In this document: piece by piece, positions 1-18,970 of the stretch | How positions within the stretch are numbered: position 1 is the stretch's first letter | How the letters are laid out: every line of letters begins with the position of its first letter | Assembly: GCA_016839605.1 (NCBI GenBank) | Contig: JAEOTX010000002.1 | Location: 1 to 19,799, forward strand | From: Candidatus Thorarchaeota archaeon | Lineage (GTDB): Archaea; Asgardarchaeota; Thorarchaeia; Thorarchaeales; Thorarchaeaceae | DNA length: 19,799 bases | Direction: 5' to 3' | Position numbers and translations under genes: made by a program | Notes under the pieces: generated by a model | Told to the model about the DNA's origin: nothing | Databases searched by the model: none | Seen by the model: only the letters and a program-made list of their open reading frames with translations

Positions 1-1295
1 CCGTTTCAATGGAATGGGATATCGATGACGGTCTTACTGATCAGAAAGGAATCGCTATTGACTTAGGTACTACAACAATTGTAGCCTACCTGATTGATAT
101 GGAGAGTGGGATCCAAGTTGGACAATCCGCATCTCTGAATCCTCAGGTCATTTATGGCGAAGATGTCATGTCGCGAATAGCTTATGCGCAAAGAGAGGAG
201 GATGGCGCGAAGACTCTCAAGGACGTTGTCTTGCAGAGGCTGGATGAACTCATTATAGATCTGGCATCATCATCTGATACGGACATTCGAGATATCACGA
301 GATTGTCAATTGTTGGCAATCCTGCAATGCATCACTTGCTATTGGGATTGGATACTGCATCTCTGGGAAGGTCACCATTTGAACCAGTAATACGAGATGC
401 TCTATTTACAAACGGAGAAGTCCTAGGACTCAAATCCGGTCCTGAAGCAAGTGCGTATATTGCCCCCAATATAGCAGGATTTGTAGGCGGGGATACCTCA
501 GCCTTCATTCTGTCCCAGCGATTGGATGCCACTGAGGAGATTGTGCTTGGCATTGATATTGGAACGAATGGCGAGATTGTTCTCTCAGTGCGAGGTGAGT
601 TGTTCTGTTGCTCCGCTGCAGCTGGCTCAGCTTTTGAGGGGGCGACAATAAAACATGGAATGAGGGGGCAAGAAGGGGCAATAGAGCATCTGGTAATCAC
701 GAATCCGGAAGAGGCGCCCGAATTATTCGTCATTGGTGAAGCATCACCCAGGGGGTTATGCGGATCAGCAATTGTAGATGTTGCGGCGCAACTGAAAGAA
801 TCCGGGATTGTAGAGTCAGGAGGGCAGATGCTAGAGTCAAAAAGAGTGTTGGAAACCAGAGATGGTAGAGCATACCTCATTTCTGACCCTGAAGAAGGCA
901 ACGCGGAACGGAGAATCGTCTTCACTCAAAAAGATGTTAGACAGGTTCAACTAGCAAAAGGAGCTATTCTCGCAGGAGCAAGCATTTTGATGGACTCTGC
1001 GGGAATAGGAGTTCCAGATATCGACAGATTACTACTAGCAGGTGCATTTGGGAACTACATTGATCCAGTGAATGCACTTGCAATAGGGCTTCTCCCACCA
1101 ATTGCATTAGAGAAGGTAATTCCTGTTGGAAATGCAGCTGGAGAAGGAGCAAAAAGGATGCTCTTGTCATCCAAAGAAAGAGCTCTGATCGAGAAGATAG
1201 TGAAGAGTGTCAACTACATTGAATTAGCACGACACAAGAGCTTTGAGAAGATCTTCATTCGAGCTACAGTGTTAGATGCAAAAATGCCCATCTAG
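1..1295 (+). CDS. ASKHA-domain (DUF4445/RACo/RamA-like) ATP-dependent reductive activator of corrinoid proteins, probably 5'-truncated
   Basis: Two ASKHA phosphate loops, AIDLGTTT and GIDIGTNGE, plus NPQVIYGEDVMSRI, GLCGSAIVD, TQKDVRQVQLAKGAI, LAGAFG and GNAAGEGA. The frame is open to the window edge upstream of ATG 9, and the usual N-terminal Fe-S domain is absent, so the gene likely begins before base 1. Confidence 0.9.
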   Translation, partial: VSMEWDIDDGLTDQKGIAIDLGTTTIVAYLIDMESGIQVGQSASLNPQVIYGEDVMSRIAYAQREEDGAKTLKDVVLQRLDELIIDLASSSDTDIRDITRLSIVGNPAMHHLLLGLDTASLGRSPFEPVIRDALFTNGEVLGLKSGPEASAYIAPNIAGFVGGDTSAFILSQRLDATEEIVLGIDIGTNGEIVLSVRGELFCCSAAAGSAFEGATIKHGMRGQEGAIEHLVITNPEEAPELFVIGEASPRGLCGSAIVDVAAQLKESGIVESGGQMLESKRVLETRDGRAYLISDPEEGNAERRIVFTQKDVRQVQLAKGAILAGASILMDSAGIGVPDIDRLLLAGAFGNYIDPVNALAIGLLPPIALEKVIPVGNAAGEGAKRMLLSSKERALIEKIVKSVNYIELARHKSFEKIFIRATVLDAKMPI

Positions 1296-1305
1296 CAGCG
1301 TCAGC

Positions 1306-1331
1306 ATAATGAAACATATATGTTAGATTAT
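1306..1331. promoter_or_regulatory. Imperfect 26-bp palindrome, candidate operator overlapping a TATA-like element
   Basis: ATAAT-GA-AACATATATGTT-AG-ATTAT, with 22 of 26 positions self-complementary, in the intergenic gap upstream of the corrinoid protein gene. Confidence 0.4.
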
Positions 1332-1424
1332 TTGAGAAGCCCCTAGAGGATGTAGTGAGAAATCTGACTGCTCCAGAAGAGCACAGATGATAGGCTATAA
1401 TCGAACAGGAAAGGTGCAAGCCCT

Positions 1425-2048
1425 ATGAATGAACTCACTCAGGCATTAGCGGAGCTCGAAGAGAATAGCGTCCAAGAAATGGTCGAGAAACAGATTGCAG
1501 AAGGCAAAGATCCAATCAAGATTCTCGAAGATCTAAAGGACGGAATGGATATCGTAGGCAAACGATTCTCAGAGAACGAGTACTTTCTAGTTGAACTGGT
1601 TATGTCTGCGGACATCTTCAACAAGGCATTGGAGATTTTGGAGCCAAAGCTAATAGAAACTCAGTCAGGAGTGGAGAAGGGCAAGGTCGTCATAGGAACT
1701 GTCAAGGGTGACATACATTACATAGGAAAGAACCTCGTTATCGCATTTCTCAAGTCCAATGGATTTGAGGTCTATGACCTGGGAGAGGATGTTGCACCAG
1801 AAGCCTTTGTTGACAAATTAAAAGAAACAGGTGCCGCAATCCTGGCTTTGAGTGGATTGATTACAACCACGCATGACGTTATGCGTGAAACGGTCAATGC
1901 ATTGGTGACTGCAGGCATCCGTGACAACGTCAAGGTCATGATAGGCGGATGTGATGTCAATCAAGAGGTTGTGGATCATACTGGAGCAGATGGTTTTGGA
2001 AGGGATGCAGTCAGTGCAGTGGAGATAGCCAAGAAGTTCTTGACCTAA
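1425..2048 (+). CDS. Cobalamin-binding corrinoid protein (MtaC/MttC/MtbC-like methyltransferase cognate)
   Basis: N-terminal helical cap (GMDIVGKRFSENEYFLVELVMSA). B12 motifs DxHxxG (GTVKGDIHYIGKNLV), SxL (LSGL) and GG (MIGG). AGGTG SD upstream. Adjacent to the RACo gene. Confidence 0.93.
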   Translation: MNELTQALAELEENSVQEMVEKQIAEGKDPIKILEDLKDGMDIVGKRFSENEYFLVELVMSADIFNKALEILEPKLIETQSGVEKGKVVIGTVKGDIHYIGKNLVIAFLKSNGFEVYDLGEDVAPEAFVDKLKETGAAILALSGLITTTHDVMRETVNALVTAGIRDNVKVMIGGCDVNQEVVDHTGADGFGRDAVSAVEIAKKFLT

Positions 2049-2099
2049 TCTACTTTGATTTCATGCGAAACGGCCAAATGGTAGTTCTCCTAGGGTGTT

Positions 2100-2984
2100 G
2101 TGATTCAGTTGCCTGGAGATGAGATAGCAAAGCCATTGGATATTAGTTGCACTAGAACTTGCGATTGTCCTCCAAAACATATCAACTGCTTGACTGCGAA
2201 AGAGTGGATGCAGAACCAGATTGCTGTTTGGGAATTCTACTATGAAAAACGAGACATCCGAAACAAGAAGCTGCATCCCGCAGTCTTTCCAATTGCACTT
2301 CCGAAGAAATGCATTGAGCTCTTTACACATCGAGGAGAGCTTGTCATTGACCCATTTGTGGGCAGTGGAACTACCCTGCTAGCTGCAAAGGACACAGGGA
2401 GAAACGCAGTTGGGTTCGATTTGAAGCAGGATTATGTTGAGCTTTCAAACGAAAGGATGAAACCTCTTCAGAAAAACAACGGTATGCAGCTGGCAATATG
2501 CGATGAGGCGCATAATTTGAATGAGTATTTGAATGAGGAAACTGTATCTCTCTGCATCACTTCACCGCCCTATGCCAATTTGCTAAATCGAAAGAGACGA
2601 AACAAGAGCATCCGTGGCAACCTCAGAAAAGACGAACACTATCTCGAAGTACAACAATATTCAGACGACCCAAGAGACCTCGGAACTATGGATGTGAAGA
2701 AATACGCAGAAACGATTGGTACAATCTTTGAGAGAATTCTCCCACTAATGCGTCATAGAGGTCACTGCGTGATCAATATCACCGACTATTGGTGGAAGGG
2801 TCAGAGAATACCAGCACACGTCTATGTGATAGAAGCGCTTCAGAAAGTGGGCTTCGAACTCAGGAACACAATCATCTGGGATAGGAGGAATATCGTGAAC
2901 AAAGCAGGGATTTTCGGCTGGCCCAGCAATTATATCACTCTCTCAACAACATTTGAGTACTTGCTGCATTTCTGGAAACCGTAG
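2100..2984 (+). CDS. Site-specific amino (N4-cytosine/N6-adenine) DNA methyltransferase, orphan, permuted motif order
   Basis: HPAVFP...DPFVGSGTT (motifs X and I, SAM binding) precede the catalytic motif IV TSPPY, followed by LRNTIIWDR and FEYLLHFWK. SPPY favours N4mC. The exact start is uncertain (GTG 2100 or TTG 2109). Confidence 0.88.
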   Translation: MIQLPGDEIAKPLDISCTRTCDCPPKHINCLTAKEWMQNQIAVWEFYYEKRDIRNKKLHPAVFPIALPKKCIELFTHRGELVIDPFVGSGTTLLAAKDTGRNAVGFDLKQDYVELSNERMKPLQKNNGMQLAICDEAHNLNEYLNEETVSLCITSPPYANLLNRKRRNKSIRGNLRKDEHYLEVQQYSDDPRDLGTMDVKKYAETIGTIFERILPLMRHRGHCVINITDYWWKGQRIPAHVYVIEALQKVGFELRNTIIWDRRNIVNKAGIFGWPSNYITLSTTFEYLLHFWKP

Positions 2985-2992
2985 GATGCCCT

Positions 2993-4072
2993 TCATATTC
3001 CAAGTGCTGAGAAGACTAAATCTTGGACCTTCTGAGTGTTTTCTTTCACCTCAGCCCATATACTGTCATCATCCTCGAAAGGCGGAGTCTGCGTGGGAGG
3101 TTTATATTCATGACCAGTGAGAACAGACATCACTACACCCGCTCCACATCGAAAGACGTTCCTATTGTAGCCACCACCTGAAACGACACCAAGACGACCA
3201 TTTGCCCACCTATGAGCAGCAGAATGGATTTTCTCCGCGACATAGCGAATCGTGTCCATTGTCAGATTCATGTGAGTCAGAGGGTCATCATAGTGTGCAT
3301 CAAACCCAGGAAGGAAGAGAATGAATTCCGGTTGAAAGAATTGGAGGAGGGGAGGTACAATCTCATCGAAAGCATATCGATATACAGCATCTCCCGAGTC
3401 CATCGGAAAGTGCATGTTAACATTGTAACCGCGACCTGATCCATGCCCGATGTCCTCTATGAAGCCATCATGCGGATACATCCACTCAGGGTCTTCATGG
3501 AATGAGATTTGCATGACTCCAGGATCATCATAGAAGTATGTCTGAGTTCCGTTTCCGTGGTGAACATCGAAATCAGCAATCAGTATCCGCTCGTATCCTT
3601 GATCTTTGAGATGGTAGACTGACGCTGCAACGTCATTGAAAATACAAAATCCTCCTCCGGTTTCGAAACGGGCATGATGAAACCCGCCAGTTGGACTGTA
3701 GATGTGATCTGCTTCTTTCGAGTGAATGGCGTGGATACCAGTCACAGTTGCGCCACTAGTGATTCTGGCATTATCGTATATCCCCTTGAAACCCGGAGTG
3801 TCAATATCGATTTCGCCCTCTCCAGTTTCGGATATTCGCCTAACCTTATCCAAATATGCTTGTGAGTGAATCCGATTAAGAAGAGAGTTCGATAGAGGCT
3901 TCGGTTTGATGATCTTTACATTGGGATATTCAAGGAATCTGGTTTCCTGAAGAAAGTCCCTGACCATTTGAAATCGTCCTACACGAATCGGATGTTTGGA
4001 GCCAAAGTCAAAGGTCTCTAGTTCGGGACTCCAGGTAAATCCAACATTGCATTTGGGGAGGGAAGGACTCAT
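2993..4072 (-). CDS. Zn-dependent histone deacetylase superfamily protein (AcuC/class I-like)
   Basis: GGFHHA, GGFCIFND, DFDVHHGNGTQ, SFHE, GFDAHYDDPL and GGGY; all catalytic and metal ligands are present. Confidence 0.93.
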   Translation of the reverse strand: MSPSLPKCNVGFTWSPELETFDFGSKHPIRVGRFQMVRDFLQETRFLEYPNVKIIKPKPLSNSLLNRIHSQAYLDKVRRISETGEGEIDIDTPGFKGIYDNARITSGATVTGIHAIHSKEADHIYSPTGGFHHARFETGGGFCIFNDVAASVYHLKDQGYERILIADFDVHHGNGTQTYFYDDPGVMQISFHEDPEWMYPHDGFIEDIGHGSGRGYNVNMHFPMDSGDAVYRYAFDEIVPPLLQFFQPEFILFLPGFDAHYDDPLTHMNLTMDTIRYVAEKIHSAAHRWANGRLGVVSGGGYNRNVFRCGAGVVMSVLTGHEYKPPTQTPPFEDDDSIWAEVKENTQKVQDLVFSALGI

Positions 4073-4092
4073 TATGGGGTTGTTTTGAGCAC

Positions 4093-4107
4093 ATGCTTAT
4101 ATGCTTA
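4093..4107. promoter_or_regulatory. Candidate shared TATA box for the divergent deacetylase and propeller genes
   Basis: TTATAT at 4097-4102 lies about 25 nt upstream of the minus-strand ATG at 4072 and about 40-45 nt upstream of the + strand start. It sits inside the direct repeat ATGCTTA-T-ATGCTTA. Confidence 0.35.
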
Positions 4108-4141
4108 CACGAGCAGAACTTCACAAGGTGCTTGTTCGAAG

Positions 4142-5578
4142 GTGAGATTGCGCGAAGTCGCAAGGGTGCCTGTTTCTGCTAACGCATACAGTCTGTATGT
4201 TAGGCAGCAAAAGGACGCCCGAGCGCAGGTCTTTTCATTGGACTATGGAGAAAGACTGCGGATTTACGACACAACGGGGTCTCTAAAGACATCTAGGGGA
4301 TACAGCAGCAAGGTTCGTTGCATAGCTGTTGCAGATGTTGAGAGTAGTGGAGAGGATGCCCTCGTTGGAGGAGCTGGAAAAAGAGTTCTAGTTGTGGACC
4401 AGAAAGGCCGTGTCCTATGGAAGAATGACCTCGAGAGCACAGTCATCGCCTGTGATGCTCGAGATGTTGATGGGGATGATGCGGCGGAAGTTGTTGCTGC
4501 TCTCCAAAACAAGCGAGTCATTCTCTGGAACCATGAGCAGACTGCGCTGTTCAGTCGCACAGTAGAACAGGCGATTTCAGACGTCTGGTTGGAGGATATC
4601 ACAAACGACTCAGAGCTTGAGGTAGTTATAGCACAACGAAAAGGTACTGTATTGATTCTCTCTGCAGCGGGCTATGAACTAAAGCGACTTGAGTTAGGCA
4701 ACGCGATAACTGTCTTTGGCGTCTTGACTTTTGGTAAAAGAAAGCTTTTCGTCACAGGAAATCATTCTCCACAGCTCCAGATATGGGACATCGATGGAAA
4801 TGCGGTTTCATCTATAATGCTTCCCGCTCCGCCAAAGGCATTAGCTACTGGAATTCCAGATGATGTTTCTGATATCGCGTATCTGGTTGTGAGTACACGT
4901 AACCGGAAGCTCATCTTCTGGGAGGCTCAAGACACAGTCAAAGTCAAGAAGTCAGAAAAGGCCACTCTTCAAGAGATAGAGTCAACAAAGATGACTCTCT
5001 ATCGACGAGTAATTAAATGTGGAAATTGTGGAGCACCAACCTCACCTGAAGCCTTAGAATGTACATCATGCGGAGCGAAGCTAGAAATGCTTGATGAGTA
5101 CGTGATTGAGGAGTACATGCAAGATAGCATAGAATCAATCACATCCAAGCACAGCAGAATTCAGCTTAAGGAATTGGACAGAATTCTCAGGAAGACACTT
5201 CCTAGACCTGCAGCGTACAATCTGAGAAGAAGCATCCAAACAATGATCAAGAAGGGTCTACTTGACGGTCATTTTGACGGAGATGTCTTTGTACGAACAG
5301 TGGAAAAGAAACCTAAGAGAAAAGAATCCCCATCAAAGGCGGCGACAAATGCTGCTGTCAAGCTTGCAAAGGATCTACTAGACAAGCAGGATGGCTTTGA
5401 TATCGAACTTGTAGAAAATGAAACAGGTATACCGCGCCAAATCCTGCGCAGAACTCTGATCATACTCCTTGGTGAAGGATTGATTGAAGGGATTCTCATG
5501 GGCAATGTCTTCACTTTGGCTAAGGAACAGAACATTCGGAAATTTCTGAACATCTTTCAAAAGGAACTAGAGGCGTAA
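4142..5578 (+). CDS. Beta-propeller (FG-GAP-like repeats) + Zn ribbon + tandem PCI-like winged-helix protein
   Basis: Repeats ADVESSGEDALV, RDVDGDDAAEVV and EDITNDSELEVV, and WD-like QIWDIDG. Zn ribbon CGNCG...CTSCG. Two C-terminal repeats, MIKKGLLDGHFDGDVF and LLGEGLIEGILMGNVF. The start was moved from the track's 4085 to GTG 4142 (or TTG 4148) because 4085-4141 overlaps the likely promoter. Confidence 0.7.
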   Translation: MRLREVARVPVSANAYSLYVRQQKDARAQVFSLDYGERLRIYDTTGSLKTSRGYSSKVRCIAVADVESSGEDALVGGAGKRVLVVDQKGRVLWKNDLESTVIACDARDVDGDDAAEVVAALQNKRVILWNHEQTALFSRTVEQAISDVWLEDITNDSELEVVIAQRKGTVLILSAAGYELKRLELGNAITVFGVLTFGKRKLFVTGNHSPQLQIWDIDGNAVSSIMLPAPPKALATGIPDDVSDIAYLVVSTRNRKLIFWEAQDTVKVKKSEKATLQEIESTKMTLYRRVIKCGNCGAPTSPEALECTSCGAKLEMLDEYVIEEYMQDSIESITSKHSRIQLKELDRILRKTLPRPAAYNLRRSIQTMIKKGLLDGHFDGDVFVRTVEKKPKRKESPSKAATNAAVKLAKDLLDKQDGFDIELVENETGIPRQILRRTLIILLGEGLIEGILMGNVFTLAKEQNIRKFLNIFQKELEA

Positions 5579-5597
5579 ATCGAAAGGAGGCAGTGTT

Positions 5598-8444
5598 ATG
5601 GATATCAGCAAACGAATTGTAGTAACATTTGTAGTCGTGTCACTGGTGCCAATTCTAATTATAGCAGGTCTATCAGCTACCACGGTATTTGATACTTCCA
5701 ATGAAAATGCTGCAGATGCTTCTGAAGCGCTAAGAACTGAAGAATTGGCCAATCTACTGAGGATATCAGAAGACACTGCAACCTTCATACAAGAAAGAAT
5801 GCAGCAGTATTTTGATGGAGTCTATATGATGGAAAGGTACTGTGAGGACCTTTTCAATGGCAGAATCAATGCCACACCCCAGTACTCCTATTTCTGGGAC
5901 CCTTCGTTGGAGTGGCTTCATAGTGGTCGAAATATACCAGGGAGAAATCCAGCTACATACGATGAAGCATACGACTCGAATGACATCTCCTTCGATGTCA
6001 GCTGTTGGTACATGCCAACTGATGATTACCAAACACCGAATGATCCATGGGATTGGAGTCCTACAACTCAAAACCTCATAGAACTCTCAAGTAATATGGA
6101 CAATATCTACCGTTCATTACATGAGGCCAGTGAGGACTATATTTGGTTATACATGGGATTCTCTCCGGATATCAGTGACACGCGGCTCTTCAGGAACTAC
6201 CCCTATGACAATCTATTCTACTTCGAAGACTGGTACGAACCGGGCGACTATGATCCTACAATAGAAGAGTGGTATCTCAACGCGGCATCCATCCTAGATG
6301 ACAGCATTGCATTCACAAGTCCTTATGGAGACCCCTCAACGGGTCTTGTCATATCAATGGGGCGGCCCGTAAGATTCGACAATGGAACCCTCATTGGTGT
6401 TGTTTCAGCCGACGTGACACTTGATACGATTATGGCCAATGTATTAGGAATCGAGGTTCTTGACAGTGGATATGCCTATCTATTGGAGTCGGATGGTGGT
6501 CTTATTGCTCACCCGGAGCTAGTCACAGAGGGTCAGACTCTGAACGAGGCGGAATTTGCAGGGGCCAGTTCATCGGAGATTGCTGCATTTACTGCTCTTC
6601 TTCCTGCAATGCTCTCAGCAGAAAGCGGGCAGGATACATTTCAGAAACGAGGAGAGGAATGGTATGTCACCTATTCAAAGGTGAATGTGACAGGATTCGT
6701 TCTTGCCATTGTCGTGCCTACCGCAGAGGTGGTAGGACCAGCTACAAATATCCTCAGCTTAGTTCTGGGTCAAACATTCATACTCACAATATTACTGGGT
6801 GCAATGCTCGCAGGAGTAGCTGTGGGTGTTGCCTTCATTTCCTACAGAAGAGGCAATGCAGTAGTTGAACCAATCAAAGAAATGACACGTCTAGTGACAA
6901 AGATGGCAGGACAAGACTTCACTCGTGGCGTATCTACAGCAGGAGCAATGTATGAAGAAGTTGGGACCACAGTTGACGCGTTGCTGAACTTCCAGGAAGC
7001 TATCAGGTTTGGAAATCAAGCTTTCATTCGTGGTGACCTGAATAGAGCCCTTGCAAACTACCAGAATTTGCTCGAAATTAGTCGGAGTCTCCGCATCGAA
7101 ATTGGTGAGCAGACTATGTATCTGAATATCGGAAACGTGTTTCGTCAGCGCGGAGACACTGGGAACGCAATGGACTACTACGAGCAAGCTCTTGCTCTGG
7201 CAAAGAAGATACTTGAGAAAGCCCGCGAAGATGGCGCAGAAGAAACTGATGCATTACTTAGAGTCGCCTCAGCCTATCACAACATGGCACTTGTCGAGAT
7301 GGACAAGAACAAGCCCGAAAAAGCTATGGAATTGCTGGAGGATGCTTTGGCAATCGACCTCACGCTAGGAAATCAAAGAGGCCTTGCTAAGCGCTTCGAC
7401 GCACAGGGACTTGTCCTGGTAAGAGAAGGTAGATACAGCCAAGCCCTTTCAAAGTTTGAGGAGGCACTCAAGACTGCCGCAGCTGAAGGCTACGAAAGAA
7501 GCATGGCATACATTCACTATCACAAGGGTGAGCTCTTTCAGGTGCAAGGGAAACTGAAGAAAGCTGAAGATGAATACAATGATGCAATCAGCCTCGGTGA
7601 GATCACTGAGGAGTTTTGGCTGGTCGTCTATGCAATGCAGAATCTAGCTGATGTCCTGGATCAGCGAGATAAACCGAGTCACGAGCTGAGGCGCAAGGCA
7701 GAGAGATTGAAACGTTCAATCATGTTCAAGAAGAGTGTCATTCTTGTCATTGACTACTCTGGGAGCATGCAGGCTCAGAACAGGATCAGAGCTGCAGTTC
7801 AAGGTGCTAAGGAGATCGTTGAGAGTCAAGTCAATCCACAGGATGAAGTGAGCATCATTGTCTTCAACTCATCATATCGAGAGATTCTCTCACTCACGAG
7901 AAAGGGAGAGTATGAGCGCCCAAGAGACAGTCCGATAATTCGTGCCCTAGATTCCCTTAGACATCCCAATTATGCAACCGCATTCTATGATGCCTTAGGC
8001 AGGGCTCTAGAGGAACTTGATAGAATCCAGACAAGCGAACATAGATGGGTAATCGCCTTGACCGATGGTCAGGACAATAGCTCCGAAAAGTATTCACTGG
8101 ATGCATTGGAGGGAATCTTTACCGAAGAAGATAGACATCGAAGGAAGAGACCACTGACAATAGAGGGATTCATACGGGACAATCATCTCGATGTCAACCT
8201 GATTATCATCGGTGTGGGGGATGAGCTGAAGGCCCCCATTGAAGCTAGGGTGAGATCGCCGGCCACAGGACGAAGAATGACATTCGAGGAATTGCTGGAC
8301 TCGGTATGTGACTACATTCCTCAGGGACAATATCTCTCAGTTGTTGACAGCATAGACGTCCGGAGTGACATTGAGAAAGCATTCCAGGAGGTCGGAGTGA
8401 TGATGGCTCAATTGGAAGTGGGAGGAAGTACGGTAGATTTCTAG
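5598..8444 (+). CDS. Membrane receptor: TM - dCache - TM - HAMP - TPR repeats - vWA domain
   Basis: TM1 IVVTFVVVSLVPILIIAGL. Cache signature YDPTIEEWY...FTSPYGD...GVVSADVTL...SGYAYLLESDGGLIAHP. TM2 FILTILLGAMLAGVAVGVAFI. HAMP EPIKEMTRLVTKMAGQDF...EEVGTTVDAL. TPRs such as YLNIGNVFRQRGDTGNAMDYYEQAL. vWA MIDAS VIDYSGSM...TAFYDAL...LTDGQDN. GGAGG SD at 5586-5590. Confidence 0.88.
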   Translation: MDISKRIVVTFVVVSLVPILIIAGLSATTVFDTSNENAADASEALRTEELANLLRISEDTATFIQERMQQYFDGVYMMERYCEDLFNGRINATPQYSYFWDPSLEWLHSGRNIPGRNPATYDEAYDSNDISFDVSCWYMPTDDYQTPNDPWDWSPTTQNLIELSSNMDNIYRSLHEASEDYIWLYMGFSPDISDTRLFRNYPYDNLFYFEDWYEPGDYDPTIEEWYLNAASILDDSIAFTSPYGDPSTGLVISMGRPVRFDNGTLIGVVSADVTLDTIMANVLGIEVLDSGYAYLLESDGGLIAHPELVTEGQTLNEAEFAGASSSEIAAFTALLPAMLSAESGQDTFQKRGEEWYVTYSKVNVTGFVLAIVVPTAEVVGPATNILSLVLGQTFILTILLGAMLAGVAVGVAFISYRRGNAVVEPIKEMTRLVTKMAGQDFTRGVSTAGAMYEEVGTTVDALLNFQEAIRFGNQAFIRGDLNRALANYQNLLEISRSLRIEIGEQTMYLNIGNVFRQRGDTGNAMDYYEQALALAKKILEKAREDGAEETDALLRVASAYHNMALVEMDKNKPEKAMELLEDALAIDLTLGNQRGLAKRFDAQGLVLVREGRYSQALSKFEEALKTAAAEGYERSMAYIHYHKGELFQVQGKLKKAEDEYNDAISLGEITEEFWLVVYAMQNLADVLDQRDKPSHELRRKAERLKRSIMFKKSVILVIDYSGSMQAQNRIRAAVQGAKEIVESQVNPQDEVSIIVFNSSYREILSLTRKGEYERPRDSPIIRALDSLRHPNYATAFYDALGRALEELDRIQTSEHRWVIALTDGQDNSSEKYSLDALEGIFTEEDRHRRKRPLTIEGFIRDNHLDVNLIIIGVGDELKAPIEARVRSPATGRRMTFEELLDSVCDYIPQGQYLSVVDSIDVRSDIEKAFQEVGVMMAQLEVGGSTVDF

Positions 8445-8451
8445 GAGGTGA

Positions 8452-9915
8452 ATGAAGTTGTCAAAGATGGCAAAGACCAAGAAGAAAGGCAGTTTCCGCA
8501 GGAATGTCATACTAACCTTCGTAGCAATTTCAATCATTTCGCTAGCAGCTACTGGAGGAATCTCATACTTCTTTGTAGATCTAATCGGAGACTTCACCAC
8601 GTCAGAGAGTACGACGGCACTTGAATCCCAGATTCAGACTAACATGGATCTCACAGCGGAAAAGACAGCAGTAGTAATCAATCAGAAATTGACTAATGCT
8701 GAATCGATGATAGCTGCATTGGCTGAAGAGGCCGAGAGGCTTCTCAGTGATGAGTCAACATACATACCACGGAGAACATACTATGATTACTTCTTCGAAT
8801 ACGGAGCGCCTGGAGAATATCCAGATGACACAGTGTACGATTCCAATTATGACCTCAATGTTTCATGGACTTACAGCAGCTGGTATGCGCCGCCTTCTGC
8901 TCTCGCGGATTATCAGAGCTTTGAAAATGAGAAACTCAGAAGAATTTCAAACCTTGATTTCATGTTCCAAGCTGTGCATCAGCAGTTAGACTTTCGATGG
9001 CTCTATGTTGCCTTTGAAAGCGATAGCATGTTCATCAATTATCCGGGGAGTCTCTTAGGAGGCACCGACCTTGAACGCACAGCAGACCCATGGTACGCTA
9101 CAGGAGACGAATGGTATACTGAGATTAGAGACCGGAGTGGTGTGGGTGGCAATATGGTCTTCGTTGAGCCATATTACGATCCTATAGATGGAGTCCTTCT
9201 GATATCAATTGGAAGGACAATACACTTCGCCAATGGCACCTTAATAGGAGTTGTTGCGGGAGACATCACAATCGAAGATATCAACCAGAGGATTCTGGAT
9301 GTCACTGTTCTTGATTCGGGATACGCGGCATTAGTTGAGGGAACATTTGGTGGTGTAGTTGCTCATCCAGATGTCGTGGATGACGACTACCTCGCAGGCC
9401 TACCTGCACTGACTGCAGTTGAAAGCAATCAGGATGGTAGTTCAGCTCTAACTTCAGAACAGGTAGACCAAGTGACATCAGGAGCAACTGGATATCTCCA
9501 ATATACGAAAGATGGCGATGACTATCTGCTCGCATATACAGCAGTAGAAAAAGCAGGCTACATATGCATTATAGTTGTCCCAATTGATGAGGTCCTTGCA
9601 GCAATCCCAGCTCTTGAAGCTCGGATTGACACTGCAACTTTGCAAGCTACAATGTTCATCCTCACCATAACAGTAGCTGGGATATTGATTGCTGCAGGTG
9701 TGGCAGTTGTTATTTCAAATCAGATCACAGGACCCCTACAATACATGATGGATTTAGCAACAAAGAACGTTGCAGCGATGATAAAGCAAGAGCCTCTTGA
9801 CTCACTCGACTTGCGTGTGGATGCAACGTACACTTCCAAGGATGACGAGATTGGAGAGCTAGCTCGAGCATTCCAAGGAATGCTGGACTCAATCAAGGAT
9901 GATGAGTCTCAATAA
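8452..9915 (+). CDS. Membrane protein: TM - dCache - TM - HAMP, with no cytoplasmic output domain
   Basis: Paralogous to the upstream gene (FVEPYYDP, FANGTLIGVVAGDITI, VLDSGYAALV, VVAHP). HAMP ends DDEIGELARAFQGMLDSIK followed by five residues and a stop. SD GGAGGTG at 8444-8450 suggests the true start is TTG 8458 or ATG 8467. Confidence 0.85.
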   Translation: MKLSKMAKTKKKGSFRRNVILTFVAISIISLAATGGISYFFVDLIGDFTTSESTTALESQIQTNMDLTAEKTAVVINQKLTNAESMIAALAEEAERLLSDESTYIPRRTYYDYFFEYGAPGEYPDDTVYDSNYDLNVSWTYSSWYAPPSALADYQSFENEKLRRISNLDFMFQAVHQQLDFRWLYVAFESDSMFINYPGSLLGGTDLERTADPWYATGDEWYTEIRDRSGVGGNMVFVEPYYDPIDGVLLISIGRTIHFANGTLIGVVAGDITIEDINQRILDVTVLDSGYAALVEGTFGGVVAHPDVVDDDYLAGLPALTAVESNQDGSSALTSEQVDQVTSGATGYLQYTKDGDDYLLAYTAVEKAGYICIIVVPIDEVLAAIPALEARIDTATLQATMFILTITVAGILIAAGVAVVISNQITGPLQYMMDLATKNVAAMIKQEPLDSLDLRVDATYTSKDDEIGELARAFQGMLDSIKDDESQ

Positions 9916-9933
9916 CAATAGGAGGTGTAGAAA

Positions 9934-11760
9934 CTGACCGTTAACGACTGGTCTATAGAGAAGTCGAGGTTAATCTATGGCCTCAAAAGCAACGATCTTC
10001 ATTTCCTAGACATCAATGACCAAGGCGACTTAGTCATCAGCCTCCATGACAAGACAATCTCCATCAATGATATTGTGCGACAAGTTGAGTCAACAAATGG
10101 AACTAGAACAGGTTATGCATCATCATTTACCTTGCGACTCCCTCAGCTCATATCATATCAAGTCAGAAAGCTGATAGCTACTTTTCTCAAAGTAATCAAG
10201 AAAACGGATTACAAAGGCGAGTTCAGTGCAGTCTATCCGGTCAAGGTGAATCAACGGCGCGACAATGTAGTTCAAGTCCTTCATACGAATCCTGACTATG
10301 GACTCGAAGCAGGTACGAAAGCTGAACTGTTTCTCGTCAAATCAGTGGTGGAGAAGGAGAAACATCGGCTCATAATCTGCAATGGAGCCAAGGATCCTGA
10401 ATATCTCAATACAATACGGGAGTGTATTGAGGAAGGCTACAACATTGCGATATCCATAGAGTCACTTCATGAAGCTAAGCTCATTGTTGACAGATTCAGG
10501 CCAGAAAATAGCAACATGGTTCTCAGAATCAAACCGTACTTAACTGTCAGGGGACATTGGTCACATTCTGCAGGACGCGACTCAAAATTCGGGCTTAGTA
10601 TCCATGACCTATTTGATGTAGTCGACCTGCTAAAGAAGAAAGGGTTCCAAGACTCAGTCTCTACAATTCTGGGTCATGTGGGATCTCAAATCACGGCAAT
10701 TGAGGACTTTTTCGGGTTTTCTGAGTTCATGACAAGGACGTTCATGGAGCTTCGGGAAAAGGGATTTTCGAATCTCAAGACAGTCGATTTTGGTGGAGGA
10801 CTCCCAATTGATTATACCAGCTCGTATGCGTCAAACCTGATGGAGCTATATGCAGAATCATTGGTGAAGGGCATACAGAATGAGCTGCCAAACTGGCCTG
10901 ATGGCCCTTATCCAAACATAATGGTCGAATCAGGACGTGGACTAACAGCTCTCGGATCTCTGGTACTGATCAAGGCTTTGGAAGTACGGTCTGTGTTTCC
11001 GAAGCTAGAGGATAGAGATGAGTCCAGCATGGCTCAATACCATGAAGTGGTGAAGGAGATAGCAAGTGCTGCATCTGTCAGTGAGCTCGCTGAGATTTGG
11101 AACGATTTCCAGACAGGGAAGAGTGGTCAGGCTGAGTCACTCAATGCACTCAGAGAGAGAGAGGCAATGATTGGTCAGGTCAGAGCAGAGATACGACAAC
11201 AGCTCGCGCAGCTTGGTGCAACTGGCTTGAGGTCTGATGCCTTGAGTGATAGTGTATGGCATCCAGACCATATTGTGATAGGCAACTTCAGCGTTTTCAA
11301 CAGTGCCTGCGATTATGTCCTCGTGAAGCAGCATTTCCCCGTTATTCCTATTCAGGACCTCCATCTTCATCCTGAAACTACTGTGCGTTTAGTCGACATA
11401 ACTTGCGATTCAGATGGCGAGATTTCGCAGTTTCATAGGAAAGGCACTGGAGAGATATGGTTCACTAGAGATTACAGACCAGTCACAATGCCCATCGGCC
11501 AGATGGGGCAGGGCATCCCAGTGGGGTCAATCGCTAACACTCCAGGCTCATATTTCGCAATTGCTCTTACAGGAGCGTACCAAGATGTCATTGAGATGAA
11601 TCACAACCTCCTTGGAGACCTTCCCGATGTAGAACTCATATTAGACAAGGACAGCCATTGGCAGGTCAGATGGATGACAGACGCAGAGAGCATGGAGGAC
11701 ATCCTAAAGGAAATGGGATACATTGGATTCGATATAGATGAAGATCCATACATGACATGA
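9934..11760 (+). CDS. speA: Biosynthetic PLP-dependent arginine decarboxylase (fold-type III), 608 aa from a CTG start
   Basis: YPVKVNQ (PLP Lys), GLEAGTKAEL, ICNGAKD, SKFGL, HVGSQI, DFGGGLPIDY, ESGRGL, NFSVFNS, DITCDSDG and GAYQD..MNHNLLG. The in-frame extension upstream of 10075 (TVNDWSIEKSRLIYGL...FLDINDQGDLVI) matches the SpeA N-terminus, and SD GGAGGTG lies at 9921-9927. Confidence 0.88.
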   Translation: MTVNDWSIEKSRLIYGLKSNDLHFLDINDQGDLVISLHDKTISINDIVRQVESTNGTRTGYASSFTLRLPQLISYQVRKLIATFLKVIKKTDYKGEFSAVYPVKVNQRRDNVVQVLHTNPDYGLEAGTKAELFLVKSVVEKEKHRLIICNGAKDPEYLNTIRECIEEGYNIAISIESLHEAKLIVDRFRPENSNMVLRIKPYLTVRGHWSHSAGRDSKFGLSIHDLFDVVDLLKKKGFQDSVSTILGHVGSQITAIEDFFGFSEFMTRTFMELREKGFSNLKTVDFGGGLPIDYTSSYASNLMELYAESLVKGIQNELPNWPDGPYPNIMVESGRGLTALGSLVLIKALEVRSVFPKLEDRDESSMAQYHEVVKEIASAASVSELAEIWNDFQTGKSGQAESLNALREREAMIGQVRAEIRQQLAQLGATGLRSDALSDSVWHPDHIVIGNFSVFNSACDYVLVKQHFPVIPIQDLHLHPETTVRLVDITCDSDGEISQFHRKGTGEIWFTRDYRPVTMPIGQMGQGIPVGSIANTPGSYFAIALTGAYQDVIEMNHNLLGDLPDVELILDKDSHWQVRWMTDAESMEDILKEMGYIGFDIDEDPYMT

Positions 11761-11828
11761 TTCAGGTCAGAGTATTGTACAGTTCTCAATGCTTAAGACT
11801 AGGCAGGGTCAATTTCATTTGAACACAT

Positions 11829-12632
11829 ATGACACGACCATTAGAGGCCAAGCTAGAACTTGTGAAGGAATCACTCAGAGGAAAAAGTATCCTAATAGCG
11901 TTCAGTGGTGGTGTTGACAGCTCAACCCTCGCCCTCATCGCACGAGATGTGGCAACGAAGGCAGTACTCCTTACAATGAATACTGTCACTTATTCCGAAT
12001 CTGAGCTTGAGGTCGCAAAGCGTGTTGCATCAGAGTTGGGGCTGCAGCATGATGTCATATGGCATGACTGGCTGGCTGAGGAAGAGCTTATAGAGAACCC
12101 ACGAAACCGATGTTATCAATGTAAGAAGAAATTGGCAGAACGATGGATCCAAGAAGCAGAGAAACGGGGACTCGATACTGTCATTGAGGGCACCACAGCT
12201 AGTGATATTGACGGATATCGACCAGGAGAGCAAGCGCTTCGAGAAACTAGTGTTCAATCACCATTGCTTGCAGCAGGAATCACAAAAGATGAGGTTCGAG
12301 AGATTGCCCGTGAAAACAGCCTGTCAGTATCTGATAGTCCCTCTATGGCGTGTCTAGCCACAAGATTCCCCTATGGGACCAAAATAACCAACAAGAAACT
12401 CGAGATGGTAGCAGGTGTTGAGAACTTTGCCCGACTTCATTTTGGAGTGAGGAATGTGCGCGCTCGGTTCCATGGAGATCTAGTACGTATGGAAGTGGGT
12501 CGAGATGAACGCTCGAAGCTATTTGATGAGAAGAAGCTTGACGAGTTCCAGAAGTTTGCAGCAGGCCTGGGTTTCACCTTCGTGACTTTCGACGTATTTG
12601 GATACAGGACTGGAGCTATGGATGAAGTCTGA
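11829..12632 (+). CDS. larE: ATP-dependent sulfur transferase LarE (PP-loop superfamily)
   Basis: AFSGGVDS PP-loop, NPRNRCYQCKK, YRPG, SPLLAAGITKDEVR, PSMACLATRFPYG and GYRTGAM. Confidence 0.9.
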   Translation: MTRPLEAKLELVKESLRGKSILIAFSGGVDSSTLALIARDVATKAVLLTMNTVTYSESELEVAKRVASELGLQHDVIWHDWLAEEELIENPRNRCYQCKKKLAERWIQEAEKRGLDTVIEGTTASDIDGYRPGEQALRETSVQSPLLAAGITKDEVREIARENSLSVSDSPSMACLATRFPYGTKITNKKLEMVAGVENFARLHFGVRNVRARFHGDLVRMEVGRDERSKLFDEKKLDEFQKFAAGLGFTFVTFDVFGYRTGAMDEV

Positions 12633-12671
12633 TGCCATTATGCCCTTGATTAAGCAAATTGTCTGTAATGC

Positions 12672-12920
12672 TCACGTAATTTCTAGTTCGATATCTTCTC
12701 CTGTCCATTGCTTAACCAAGACATAGAGGTGCTTTATCTGATCAGGTTTAAGGCGTGGCATCTTTTCAGATATCCACTTCCTCATCATAAACGAGTTCAG
12801 ATACTGCTCACGCAGCTTCTTTGTAGCATTAGACAAAGGAAACCCTCCTGGCGTAATTCCTTTTCTGAAATCATATGTAGTATTCAAACTTGTTACATAA
12901 ACCTTTGCGAAGAGTTTCAC
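12672..12920 (-). CDS. Small basic hypothetical protein (82 aa)
   Basis: Its GTG start overlaps the TAG stop of the upstream peptidase (TAGTG). It fills otherwise empty space. No recognisable motif. Confidence 0.55.
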   Translation of the reverse strand: MKLFAKVYVTSLNTTYDFRKGITPGGFPLSNATKKLREQYLNSFMMRKWISEKMPRLKPDQIKHLYVLVKQWTGEDIELEIT

Positions 12921-14101
12921 TAGATACAGATTAGCTCCTTCTGAGGGCGCGAAATTAACTCACACCCTTTTCGTGTGATGAGGATGTCCTCTTCCAAGCT
13001 GATTTGTCCGTAATTCTCAGTCGTCACATAAAGCTCCAAGGTGAAAACATTCCCCACCTCAACAACACCCATTGGTGTAGCGCCATATCTTTCCCATCGA
13101 GGTCCCAGTAAAGCGCCGCCATCATGAGCTTGCCGTCCTACTTGATGTCCCAGTGCATGCTGGTATTCCTCATATCCACGGTCTTTGACAAACTCACGCG
13201 CAATGGCGTCGACTTCATACCCTAAAGCACCGGGTCGTATCCAGTCAGCTGCGGCTTGAATCGCATCTCGAACAGTTTCGAAAGCGTGTTGTACTTGCTC
13301 GGGTACATCCTCAGGTTTCCCAAAGAAGAACATCCGCTGGATGTCTGAGCAATAATCCTGATATCTTACACCAAAGTCGAAGTGGAGCAGATGCCCCTCT
13401 TTTGTCATGTTTGAAGTTGGCCCTGAGTGCCCGAACTGCTTGTAGGGGCCAGCATCCACTGCTGGATTATGATCCTTATCCCAGGCGAAGCCTACACCAT
13501 GTCGGTTCATCGCCTCGTGAAACTTGCTTTGAATCTCAATCTCGGTCATTCCGACCTTAAGGAATGTCTGGGCTTCTTCGAAAATGGACTCAGTAATTTG
13601 AACTGCTTTCTTGATGCGCTCAATCTCTGTTGGGATCTTTCGCCCACGTAGCTTGCTAACAATATTCTCAGAGCTCACTAGGCGATTCTTGAAGTCCGAG
13701 TCAGCAAGATACTCTTGCAAGATGAGATACATTCCATGAGAGAGTCCATCAGCAGCAACATCGTTCTTACTAAAATTGATAGCAATCTTTGATGGCCCTA
13801 ATTGGTTAAGCTCTTTGATGAGAACTTCTTTGATGCTCTTCGTGTAAGGAACAACTCTGCTGAAAAGCCCTGTTGCCTCTGTGGCATCTGCATCAAAATT
13901 CCCAACGATTGCAAGTGGTTTACCATTCATTGGAAACAACAATGCCGACTGCCAGACGAATTCTCCACCATATATGAGATCGAGAACTGGGTCAGCCATT
14001 TGTGAAGTCTCTCGAATCCAAACAAGCCACAGGTCAGCGTCAACCTCTTTGAGTATACCCCCTACTTGCTTCACCTTTTCAAGCTGTAAATCGTTTTCCA
14101 A
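12920..14101 (-). CDS. Xaa-Pro aminopeptidase/prolidase family (M24) metallopeptidase
   Basis: LRGRKIPTEIERIKKA, and metal ligands in FDFG, SDIQR, HALGHQVG, HDG, FTLE and LEEDILIT. Confidence 0.92.
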   Translation of the reverse strand: MENDLQLEKVKQVGGILKEVDADLWLVWIRETSQMADPVLDLIYGGEFVWQSALLFPMNGKPLAIVGNFDADATEATGLFSRVVPYTKSIKEVLIKELNQLGPSKIAINFSKNDVAADGLSHGMYLILQEYLADSDFKNRLVSSENIVSKLRGRKIPTEIERIKKAVQITESIFEEAQTFLKVGMTEIEIQSKFHEAMNRHGVGFAWDKDHNPAVDAGPYKQFGHSGPTSNMTKEGHLLHFDFGVRYQDYCSDIQRMFFFGKPEDVPEQVQHAFETVRDAIQAAADWIRPGALGYEVDAIAREFVKDRGYEEYQHALGHQVGRQAHDGGALLGPRWERYGATPMGVVEVGNVFTLELYVTTENYGQISLEEDILITRKGCELISRPQKELICI

Positions 14102-14126
14102 TTTCTCATCACCCTTTTACAAGAGT

Positions 14127-15236
14127 TCAGTCATTCGGACTGATGACGGCCTTGACCGACTCATGGCGTTCCTGCGTTTCTAAAGCCTCTTGAGTCTGGT
14201 CTAGTAAAAACTTGTGAGTCACGACGTCTTCAAACGGAAACTCGTCATAGTTGTCAGCTATTGTACGAACTGCTTGATACACATGTGTGGTTTCCGAACC
14301 CCAGACTGTTCGAATATCAAGATGTTTCCGGTTCATGAGGTGAGGATTCATTTCTACTGTCCCACTATCTGTGTATTGACCACAGATTGTGTAAGTTCCA
14401 CCTTCTCTAACAAGTTCAACTCCCTCAGGCACGGCTAGCGCATTCCCAGTGGCCTCATATACAATGTCGGGGCCATGACCATTCGTGATTTCACGTAGGA
14501 AATCGTGACGCTCTTTCAACGAGGTCTCTCTGATGTTCAATGTATGAGTTGCCCCAAACTTCTCTGCTAACTTGAGTCGATGTGATTCCATATCGATTGA
14601 AGTGATGGTTGATGCTCCATTGATCTTTGCAAGAGCTAGAAGCATTAGCCCTACCGGACCAGCACCTTGAATCGCGACATTTGATCCCCACTTCAGTGGG
14701 CTCCGGATGACAGTATGCACCGCTGTTGGCATTGCACATCCCACAGCTCCAGCCCCATCAAAGCTTACATGATCAGGAATCTGAATCACATGTGTTCCAG
14801 GAGTGACATACACATACTCACTGTAGGCTCCGATCAGATGAGGCCATTTCGTCGAATCCATAGTTATGCCATACACCTCCCTATTTGGGCACTTTGTGGG
14901 AGCCTTGGCAATCAGACAAAACCAGCAGGAGTAACAGGTCTTCGTCACATCATGGATGGTGACTCTGTCTCCGACCTTGATCTCGTGGCCATCTACGTTT
15001 CTGATCTTCTTTGGTCCTATAGCCTCGACCGTTCCTACCATCTCGTGACCTGGAATTAATGGATATGGCACTCCAGCCAATTTCCCATGCCACAGGTGAA
15101 CATCGGTTCCGCAAACGCCAGCATTTGCCACTTTCAATAAAGCAGCACCGGGTTTTAGTTCCGGTATCTCAAACTCTCTAATTTCTACAGGAGCGTTTGG
15201 CTCAGGGATTACGGCTGCACGACTCGTTTTCGGCAT
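14127..15236 (-). CDS. Zn-dependent medium-chain alcohol dehydrogenase (MDR family)
   Basis: GVCGTDVH, PGHE, structural Zn site CYSCWFC...C, GCAMPT and Rossmann GAGPVG. The acidic residue in IDME suggests NAD preference. Confidence 0.93.
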   Translation of the reverse strand: MPKTSRAAVIPEPNAPVEIREFEIPELKPGAALLKVANAGVCGTDVHLWHGKLAGVPYPLIPGHEMVGTVEAIGPKKIRNVDGHEIKVGDRVTIHDVTKTCYSCWFCLIAKAPTKCPNREVYGITMDSTKWPHLIGAYSEYVYVTPGTHVIQIPDHVSFDGAGAVGCAMPTAVHTVIRSPLKWGSNVAIQGAGPVGLMLLALAKINGASTITSIDMESHRLKLAEKFGATHTLNIRETSLKERHDFLREITNGHGPDIVYEATGNALAVPEGVELVREGGTYTICGQYTDSGTVEMNPHLMNRKHLDIRTVWGSETTHVYQAVRTIADNYDEFPFEDVVTHKFLLDQTQEALETQERHESVKAVISPND

Positions 15237-15374
15237 TTTATCTCATTCCTCAATGGTATTTGGGTCTAGGCAGAAGACTGCAAAACCCCGATTTAACACT
15301 GAGGCTTTGACCAATACCGCATTTGTGAGAAATGCTAAAGAGCAGTCGTTTAGGTGGAAAATCAAGGGATATGA

Positions 15375-15776: not shown

Positions 15777-15813
15777 GGGCTAAGCAGCGCTTTCTAAATG
15801 CATGTTCTCAACG

Positions 15814-15826
15814 ATGAAGTTATAAG
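15814..15826 (+). promoter_or_regulatory. Candidate archaeal BRE/TATA promoter of the tusA-dsrE-iscS-iscU cluster
   Basis: Purine-rich ATGAAG followed by TTATAA (15820-15825), about 45 nt upstream of ATG 15871. SD AGGTGA at 15857-15862. Confidence 0.45.
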
Positions 15827-15870
15827 GAATTAACTATGGTTTATTTCTTGATGGTTAGGTGAAATCCTCC

Positions 15871-16113: not shown

Positions 16114-16120
16114 ATGAATA

Positions 16121-16474: not shown

Positions 16475-16484
16475 GTGAGTCAGG

Positions 16485-17663: not shown

Positions 17664-17669
17664 TGAAGA

Positions 17670-18452: not shown

Positions 18453-18500
18453 TACTGACTATCCGGTAGATACAATTGACCTGTCTGCCACACTAACCGC

Positions 18501-18959: not shown

Positions 18960-18970
18960 GGGAAGAAAGC

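Follow-up and report, generated by a model that had tools for sequence, protein, structure and literature searches.

A 19,799-nt stretch from the genome of a Candidatus Thorarchaeota archaeon (assembly GCA_016839605.1, contig JAEOTX010000002.1, positions 1 to 19,799; hereafter the window) encodes two adjacent transmembrane proteins, the long receptor P0001 and the short receptor P0002, each of which carries a single double-Cache (dCache_1) sensor module. The two proteins probably represent a paralogous Asgard receptor pair, whose enlarged Cache module is a cousin, rather than an ancestor, of the corresponding module in the eukaryotic alpha2delta subunits of calcium channels and in CACHD1. The von Willebrand factor A (VWA) module of P0001 would be unrelated to that of the eukaryotic proteins, and the pair is proposed to sense an amine. 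Gabapentinoid drugs target the alpha2delta subunits. An earlier note on this DNA, made from the sequence alone, had suggested an archaeal relative of, or a parts list for, the alpha2delta architecture, an interpretation that is partly supported by the present analysis. The first description holds for the Cache portion: the host is an Asgard archaeon, and the enlarged N-terminal half of the sensor matches the VWA_N region of alpha2delta.

Modular architecture of the two receptors

Both proteins were assigned to dCache_1 (PF02743) by Pfam, with 68.3 bits for P0001 and 49.1 bits for P0002 (cutoff 45), and the same match was observed in 24 of 24 long-form and 26 of 26 short-form family members. 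The typical layout of such sensors, in which a long N-terminal helix and two PAS-like modules are flanked by two transmembrane (TM) segments, was recognized in both proteins by means of AlphaFold2 (AF2) models, structural Z scores of 20-22 and hydropathy. P0001 and P0002 were the only two dCache_1 genes found in a search of the whole metagenome-assembled genome (MAG). Each carries one dCache_1 module with its own two TM segments, such that no nested pair occurs in one extracellular chain, and both sensors are collinear with an uninterrupted dCache_1, free of any inserted VWA.

P0001 (948 aa; 5598..8444, forward strand, as are all receptor features given below) consists of TM1, an enlarged dCache_1, TM2, an array of tetratricopeptide repeats (TPRs) and a VWA with a metal ion-dependent adhesion site (MIDAS). 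Its ectodomain (aa 31-385; 5688..6752) was modelled as a double-Cache fold with a predicted local distance difference test (pLDDT) score of 88, and includes an additional piece of ∼70 residues, placed after the long helix and before the distal module. The second hydrophobic segment spans aa 382-417 by hydropathy. Further downstream are the TPR array (aa ∼470-700; 7005..7697; Pfam TPR_12, TPR_1 and TPR_2), which is cytoplasmic by predicted topology, and the VWA with its complete MIDAS (Pfam aa 714-875; 7737..8441; VWA_2 48.7 bits, VWA 32.1 bits), which is likewise predicted to be cytoplasmic because it is located past TM2 and the TPRs. The earlier note had placed the VWA at the C-terminus and in the cytoplasm, in agreement with this arrangement. 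It had also recognized two dCache domains and a VWA at the locus, while its assignment of the VWA to a separate, adjacent gene proved mistaken, as the module lies within the gene of the first receptor. The motifs quoted in that note are all present in the translations, both in P0001 (ISFDVSCWYMPTDDY, LSSNMDNIYRSLHEASEDYIWLYMGF, LFRNYPY and DYDPTIEEWYLNAAS) and in P0002 (VSWTYSSWYAP, ISNLDFMFQAV, RWLYVAFE and MFINYPG).

P0002 (487 aa; 8452..9915) is composed of TM1, dCache_1, TM2 and a HAMP domain (9724..9897; Pfam HAMP 25.7 bits; present in 26 of 26 family members), at which point the protein ends. No kinase, chemoreceptor, cyclase or other enzymatic output module (MCPsignal, HisKA/HATPase, GGDEF) was detected in either protein by Pfam or NCBIfam.

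The same paired layout is encountered elsewhere among the Asgard archaea, where a long TM-dCache-TM-TPR-MIDAS VWA protein is accompanied by an adjacent short dCache-HAMP protein that lacks an output module. Long (∼900 aa) and short (∼490 aa) copies were found side by side in 8 of 30 sampled Asgard families, and in the loci examined the short form always adjoins a long form. The long-form family includes ∼80 representatives of 780-1120 aa, which share a common layout. Orthologues of at least 60% identity form well over a hundred clusters for each of the two window proteins, and their labels are mostly Thorarchaeota. Both genes belong to an operon conserved among Asgard archaea, which encodes a beta-propeller protein, the long receptor, the short receptor and a SpeA-like arginine decarboxylase.

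Resemblance of the Cache modules to alpha2delta-1 and CACHD1

The AF2 models of the sensors were compared with solved chains via residue-level structural alignment and ranked by Z score. For the P0001 sensor, chains of alpha2delta-1 headed the ranking (Z 20.6-22.8), with 274-298 residues aligned at ∼3 Å and mostly 24-25% identity. The bacterial domains gave Z values of ∼20, with 219-235 residues aligned and 17-21% identity. In other words, alpha2delta-1 covers ∼60 more residues of the P0001 sensor than any bacterial domain does, and these residues correspond to the enlarged part of the ectodomain.

The first dCache_1 of alpha2delta-1 (CACNA2D1; PDB 7mix_D, 8x90_B, 8hlp_F, 3jbr_F) and of CACHD1 (8s7c_A, 9eq6_A) has the same double-Cache fold with an extra N-terminal piece. 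Several motifs are common to these proteins and the window sensors, namely IW.Y.GF, F.NYP, YD....xWY..AAS, PY.D and the Asp of the GxxxxDv stretch. The models thus suggest that an enlarged Cache fold, including the VWA_N piece, is common to the window sensors and alpha2delta, a resemblance that would be insufficient for membership in the alpha2delta/CACHD1 family. Unlike the eukaryotic proteins, the window sensors have no VWA after the WY motif, carry one Cache per chain rather than two nested ones, have Glu or Asp in place of the motif Arg, and are located between two TM helices that couple them to cytoplasmic domains.

The bacterial dCache_1AA sensors PctA, PctB and PctC (5ltx, 5lt9, 5ltv), Mlp24 and Mlp37 (6iop, 5ave, 3c8c) and CtaA (6pxy) likewise share the fold (Z ∼20-22) and the TM-sensor-TM topology. 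Sensors of this type are the best sequence matches of the window proteins, with which they have the motif Tyr, Trp, Tyr, Tyr and Asp in common. In contrast to them, the window ectodomain measures ∼355 residues (versus 215-250 in the solved domains), the Arg is gone, and the output consists of TPRs and a VWA in P0001, or is lacking in P0002, instead of a chemoreceptor domain, kinase or cyclase.

At the sequence level, the P0001 sensor as a single query matched CACHD1 (E 8e-11) and alpha2delta-1 (E 4e-4) in the PDB. The profile of its family gave 47 bits for CACHD1 and 32 bits for alpha2delta-1, and that of the P0002 family gave 33-34 bits for each of the two; residues 126-234 of the latter profile align weakly, by HMMER, to residues 150-255 of the alpha2delta-1 chain. 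The Pfam entry VWA_N (gathering cutoff 34.7 bits) represents the N-terminal half of a dCache_1AA domain that is split by a VWA (PMC8915833). No VWA_N match was obtained at E ≤ 0.01 in 14 control genomes, seven of which contain dCache_1, and matches were found in 15 of 400 Asgard genomes, where they were limited to three families. In one of these families, f24, five short-form genes scored 34.7-42 bits, the fullest of them covering positions 9-125 of the VWA_N hidden Markov model (HMM). One of these f24 short forms, homologous to P0002 along its full length (28% identity), had CACHD1 as its best PDB match (66 bits), followed by PctA (55 bits) and alpha2delta-1 (∼53 bits; 52.6). Its residues 123-254 align to residues 150-283 of alpha2delta-1.

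The likeness of the Cache modules to alpha2delta and CACHD1 is therefore one of homology, beyond what chance would produce, though it is weak in the window's own proteins. It goes somewhat beyond the generic dCache_1 level; a reading in which nothing exceeded that level was revised after the VWA_N results from the control genomes, the f24 short forms and the aligned lengths had been considered.

The VWA module of P0001

The MIDAS of P0001 comprises D719-x-S721-x-S723, T794 and D823, residues which are invariant across the long forms of Asgard archaea, of eukaryotes and of a low-GC group designated clade A (see below). When the family VWA profile was searched against the PDB, the matches included mussel PTMP1, ANTXR1/2, ITIH, collagen VI, integrin I-domains, BatB and 5a8j. 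No alpha2delta or CACHD1 chain was present among the 60 matches listed, down to 31.5 bits, and none was found at E ≤ 10 in a search with the P0001 VWA as a single sequence. Judged by its sequence, the module appears to be an ordinary MIDAS VWA, unrelated to that of alpha2delta. Among the prokaryotic matches to the family profile, 5a8j (373 aa, titled 'VWA2') scored 50.7 bits and BatB (3ibs) 47.8 bits. Both represent MIDAS VWAs that serve as protein-binding modules inside a prokaryotic cell, and neither is fused to an extracytoplasmic Cache sensor. We take 5a8j to be ArnB, the archaellum regulator of Sulfolobus. Bat proteins combine VWA modules with TPRs.

The suggestion of a parts list for alpha2delta fails on this module, because no alpha2delta or CACHD1 chain is among its listed matches and it occupies a predicted cytoplasmic position after TM2. 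Its MIDAS type, its location behind two TM segments and the TPRs, and the loss from both sensors of the Arg found in alpha2delta all speak against that part of the earlier note.

VWA-inserted Cache proteins in another Asgard family

Another Asgard family, f22, has proteins of the alpha2delta-type design, in which a VWA follows YDPRxRPWY as an insertion. Adjacent open reading frames (ORFs) of ∼595 and ∼430 aa were found in two of its genomes (G119 and G136) and, by score, in two others (G107 and G214). The VWA-inserted proteins themselves are encoded at 742-2526 of L050 (G119, contig C48) and 1735-3522 of L051 (G136, contig C109), each with the gene for a second Cache protein beside it. The ∼595-aa protein contains a VWA_N-like segment (residues 153-195), a VWA (221-388) and the remainder of the dCache_1 (399-545). 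The VWA begins directly after the motif YDPRTRPWY (YDPRTRPWYIGAITGAKDAVIIMDISGS), in which the Arg is retained. The protein aligns to alpha2delta-1 in one collinear stretch (152-484 to 176-533; 68 bits) and matches CACHD1 with 77 bits, and its Cache halves are collinear with the Thorarchaeota sensor profiles (73-81 bits). No VWA-inserted Cache protein was found in the genome of the window, nor in any of 85 in its family (E ≤ 0.001). The f22 proteins and the window sensors belong to the same phylum, and both have a second Cache gene as a neighbour; the f22 proteins differ in the insertion, in the retained Arg and in their position in a separate clade.

A sensor tree of 85 rows, from which the VWA was excised, was computed quickly with IQ-TREE (LG+G4) and left unrooted. 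The long forms constitute one clade (support 99) and the short forms another (94), and the VWA-inserted proteins join their partner proteins (98) as part of a third group that also contains other architectures (96). The window sensors are regarded as cousins of the alpha2delta-like branch because the VWA-inserted proteins fall outside the clades of both long and short forms.

These observations reveal in the Asgard archaea an entire subgroup of Cache sensors that bear the alpha2delta-type extension, including a branch with a VWA at the very same site, and the origin of the alpha2delta module becomes directly testable by phylogeny. Full-text literature searches found no papers in which Asgard archaea are linked to Cache domains, to alpha2delta or to CACHD1.

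Ligand-motif residues, predicted pairing and a proposed mechanism

The dCache_1AA ligand motif, Y-x4-R-x-W-Y followed by Y and D, is incomplete in both proteins. In P0001 the motif stretch YDPTIEEWY (aa 218-226; 6249..6275) places Glu223 at the position of the carboxylate-binding Arg, and the positions of the motif are occupied by Y218, E223, W225, Y226, Y243 and D272. In P0002 the stretch is WYATGDEWY (aa 214-222; 9091..9117), with Asp219 at the Arg position, and the corresponding residues are W214, D219, W221, Y222, Y241 and D271. E223 is retained in at least 90% of the P0001 orthologues, which show no variation at Y218, W225, Y226 and D272 and almost none at Y243; most of the P0002 orthologues have PYDPRGExWY. 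In both receptor families the Arg position is thus acidic and conserved, and the amine-holding Trp, Tyr, Tyr and Asp are retained.

Amine sensors have been reported to evolve from amino-acid sensors through loss of the Arg position, and the resulting dCache_1AM class is known among archaea from Halobacteriota only (PMC10589655). Acidic pockets accommodate histamine and putrescine in TlpQ and McpU (PMC6234866). With the P0002-family profile, the highest-scoring PDB chain (52 bits) was 3lib, a kinase of Methanosarcina mazei that, like PctD, belongs to dCache_1AM. The likeness of the window sensors to dCache_1AM, TlpQ and McpU consists in the loss of the carboxylate-binding position, the retention of Tyr and Asp and the presence of acidic residues, the comparison being one of these positions rather than of the full AM motif. 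Our leading guess is a ligand with an amine and no carboxylate, such as agmatine or a polyamine, because the Arg is replaced by Glu or Asp, the amine-binding residues are kept and an arginine decarboxylase is encoded in the same operon.

A complex of P0001 and P0002 was predicted with an ipSAE interface score of 0.81 (0.81, 0.78 and 0.81 in the individual runs), compared with 0.01 for the best control. Of 80 solved complexes, 58 attain the mark applied to this score, as do 2 of 110 mismatched pairs. At least 90% of the contacts were common to the runs, and the pLDDT of the partner was at least 81. The predicted interface involves TM1, the long helix, residues ∼165-178 and TM2, and is that of a canonical Cache-receptor dimer.

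The following mechanism can be proposed on these grounds. P0001 and P0002 would pair through the usual Cache/TM dimer interface, and the paired sensors would bind an amine ligand without a carboxylate. The signal would then cross the membrane to the TPR-VWA arm of P0001, the intracellular part of which would act only as a protein-docking arm, made up of the TPR array and the metal-dependent VWA. This arm might recruit or release cytoplasmic partners, the co-encoded propeller protein being a possible and obvious candidate, and the signal would thereby be tied to the putatively co-transcribed arginine decarboxylase. Two considerations temper the proposal: the adjacency of speA is only circumstantial, and the favourable complex prediction may reflect likeness to the solved Cache homodimers, such that a heterodimer and two homodimers would be indistinguishable in the models. 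On balance, the pair probably functions as an enzyme-free heteromeric amine sensor.

The window genes would accordingly be of interest beyond the Cache question, as a widely conserved transmembrane receptor pair with protein-docking domains inside the cell and no enzyme. A receptor pair tied to polyamine synthesis, and found at full length in a few protists, would be a mode of signalling that appears in no searchable paper. The search likewise found no paper describing the receptor operon.

Long-form receptors outside the labelled Asgard genomes

The long forms labelled as Asgard constitute a single clade (support 100). Nested within it is P0412 (MBC8392621.1), a long receptor from a MAG labelled Deltaproteobacteria, a position that suggests mis-binning or recent transfer.

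Three full-length homologues of the long receptor from EukProt fall outside the Asgard clade: P0328 of Stygiella incarcerata, P0392 (ANDGO_00932) and P0275 of Platysulcus tardus. From its locus tag, we take ANDGO_00932 to be a gene model of Andalucia godoyi. The Stygiella copy, the one to which the Pfam assignment refers, has the non-inserted dCache-(HAMP)-TPR-VWA layout. Contamination is an unlikely source of this protein, since its next-nearest match among the three proteins returned was ANDGO_00932, and the identity between the two is only 39%. Every dCache_1 protein of eukaryotes has been stated to carry an inserted VWA (PMC8915833); the long forms of the jakobids and of Platysulcus would depart from this rule, provided that they are truly encoded in the nucleus.

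The second group, clade A, includes 25 long receptors, most of which have YDPRCRxWY, with adjacent short partners on contigs of 30% GC. The contigs (the ENA metagenome scaffolds L022 and L023, of 30% GC, and those of P0336 and P0299) bear genes for translation and others of a eukaryote-like kind; they are rich in ORFans and aminoacyl-tRNA synthetases and carry an IF-2/eIF5B-type factor, as well as Thg1, ankyrin, large E2, SNARE, Sec1 and TTL genes. An unsampled Asgard lineage was considered as their source and rejected, the IF-2/eIF5B-type factor being uniformly 32-37% identical to those of all Asgard families; no close homologue was found in 301 genomes. A scan of viral contigs with a single protein found nothing, and tRNA scans of the clade A contigs were empty. 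The source may be a giant virus or a protist. With the other two groups taken as the root of the sensor tree, the forms of eukaryotes and those from the low-GC contigs nested, tentatively, among the Asgard long forms.

A broader scenario can be entertained, although we regard it as doubtful: the VWA_N-type Cache would have been born in Asgard archaea and inherited by eukaryotes, with the VWA insertion already present in Asgard archaea (f22) and the long receptor inherited as well (jakobids, Platysulcus), in which case the window pair would represent an extant sister lineage of the precursor of alpha2delta.

Alternative origins of the enlarged Cache module

The interpretation of the two sensors as cousins of the alpha2delta/CACHD1 module is the one we favour, with reasonable rather than high confidence, over three others. 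The best surviving of these holds that the modules are ordinary dCache_1 domains, which show only the family-wide homology already published, namely that calcium-channel subunits and chemoreceptors have Cache domains in common, as in the 2022 study of dCache_1AA, and have nothing specific to Asgard archaea. Several observations weigh against our interpretation, and some of them towards this one. The bacterial sensors Mlp24, Mlp37 and PctA/B/C (52-62 bits with the P0001 profile) scored higher than CACHD1 and alpha2delta-1 with either protein and with either family profile as the query. At E ≤ 1e-10, the P0001 profile matched 2,146 representative clusters of a library of 1.8 billion; CACHD1 would stand near 1e-7 in that library, according to our own scaling of its PDB E-value. 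VWA_N was sub-threshold on P0001 (HMM 71-124; 6027..6203; 16.2-19.3 bits against the cutoff of 34.7) and gave no match on P0002 at E ≤ 1 in the Pfam search; at that level it was detected in just 2 of 24 long-form and 7 of 26 short-form Thorarchaeota members. It also scored 24 bits on a dCache-HAMP-cNMP-SpoIIE protein. The structural Z scores were essentially tied: for P0001, alpha2delta and the bacterial domains lie within ∼1 of each other, one low-resolution chain excepted, and for P0002 the bacterial domains lead (Z 21-22) over alpha2delta-1 (Z 20.6, 280 residues). Moreover, the equation of VWA_N with an N-terminal dCache_1AA half had been made before (PMC8915833). Finally, the sensor tree includes no eukaryotic alpha2delta, such that the term 'cousin' rests on the Asgard VWA-inserted proxy and a quick, unrooted tree.

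A purely generic resemblance is nevertheless difficult to reconcile with the absence of VWA_N from all 14 control genomes, set against its matches at or above the cutoff, across nearly the whole length, on the f24 homologues of P0002. The same applies to CACHD1 being the best PDB match of one f24 form and to the ∼60 additional P0001 residues that alpha2delta-1 aligns, at higher identity than the bacterial domains. We therefore consider this explanation unlikely. The refutation test named in the earlier note thus had a mixed outcome, with a signal above the dCache_1 background at the level of the family and, for P0001 and P0002 themselves, PctA and Mlp sensors that exceed CACHD1 and alpha2delta by sequence.

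Somewhat less probable still is horizontal transfer, whereby the enlarged Cache arose in bacteria or eukaryotes and passed into the Asgard archaea and, in separate events, into protists and giant-virus-like genomes; if this were true, the likeness would say nothing about the origin of eukaryotes. Archaeal and eukaryotic Cache domains have been attributed to bacterial donors, with the eukaryotic transfer placed around the time of the last common ancestor of eukaryotes (LECA) and the VWA insertion dated to LECA, in a study that nowhere mentions Asgard archaea (PMC8915833). The patchy occurrence of the receptors within Asgard (8 of 30 sampled families), the Deltaproteobacteria-labelled member, the few and scattered eukaryotic holders and the 25-member clade on contigs of 30% GC, with its IF-2/eIF5B-type factor only distantly related to those of Asgard archaea, would all be in line with transfer. 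On the other side, the labelled Asgard long forms represent one well-supported clade of many families, throughout which the pair and its neighbours are kept, the 'Delta' protein is nested inside that clade, and in the sensor tree the forms of eukaryotes and of clade A are nested amid Asgard lineages.

The least probable view, that fusion and rearrangement in the eukaryotic lineage subsequently turned two Cache domains and a VWA such as those of the window into a single extracellular protein, could draw on the Asgard origin, on the presence of Cache and VWA in one polypeptide, on the predicted pairing of the two Cache proteins and on the full-length eukaryotic homologues (two jakobids and Platysulcus), but it is very unlikely in light of the lack of alpha2delta or CACHD1 among the 60 listed matches of the VWA profile, the TM segment and TPRs that separate the cytoplasmic VWA from the Cache, the non-inserted layout kept by the eukaryotic homologues (which implies that this lineage did not become alpha2delta), the ready-made VWA-inserted Cache protein in a different Asgard clade, the ITIH-like or other extracellular VWA affinity that the f22 protein suggests, and the loss from the window sensors of the Arg that alpha2delta retains.

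The operon and neighboring genes

The MAG from which the window derives (3.08 Mb in 259 contigs, ∼80% complete) is that of a Thorarchaeota member of the Asgard archaea. The four genes of the operon, P0003, P0001, P0002 and speA, are separated by gaps of 7-19 nt, with a GGAGG box ahead of each gene; in the case of P0001, such a box and a gap of 19 nt precede the gene. The order propeller, long receptor, short receptor and speA, together with a divergent HDAC-like gene, is kept in three distant Thorarchaeota genomes, in which the orthologues are only 66-68% identical. In all three, the propeller gene is located directly upstream of the long receptor, and speA, the orthologues of which there encode 611-617 aa, is located downstream.

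P0003 (4085..5578, forward strand) was annotated by Pfam as a beta-propeller protein with a zinc ribbon and a C-terminal helical part. The propeller blades are FG-GAP/PQQ-like, the ribbon has the form CxxC...CxxC (aa ∼311-333), and the listed TTG start is uncertain.

The gene for the SpeA-like arginine decarboxylase (9934..11760, forward strand) follows the short receptor and was identified by NCBIfam PRK05354 (334 bits) and Pfam Orn_Arg_deC_N. Its start is probably a CTG near 9934, located 7 nt after GGAGGTG, rather than the GTG at 10075 given in the ORF list. The CTG start would add 47 codons, beginning LTVNDWSIEKSRLIYGL, and the resulting length matches that of the 611-617-aa orthologues; this stretch presumably resembles the N-terminus of SpeA.

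Upstream of the operon, and divergent from it, is the gene of the histone deacetylase (HDAC) family at 2993-4072 on the reverse strand, conserved in the three Thorarchaeota genomes. The Pfam family of HDACs includes acetylpolyamine amidohydrolases, which would fit the polyamine theme. The flanks of the window encode a RACo-type corrinoid activase with a B12-binding protein (9-2048) and a sulfur-relay cluster of TusA, DsrE, cysteine desulfurase and NifU (15859-18452), the latter being syntenic in other Thorarchaeota genomes too.

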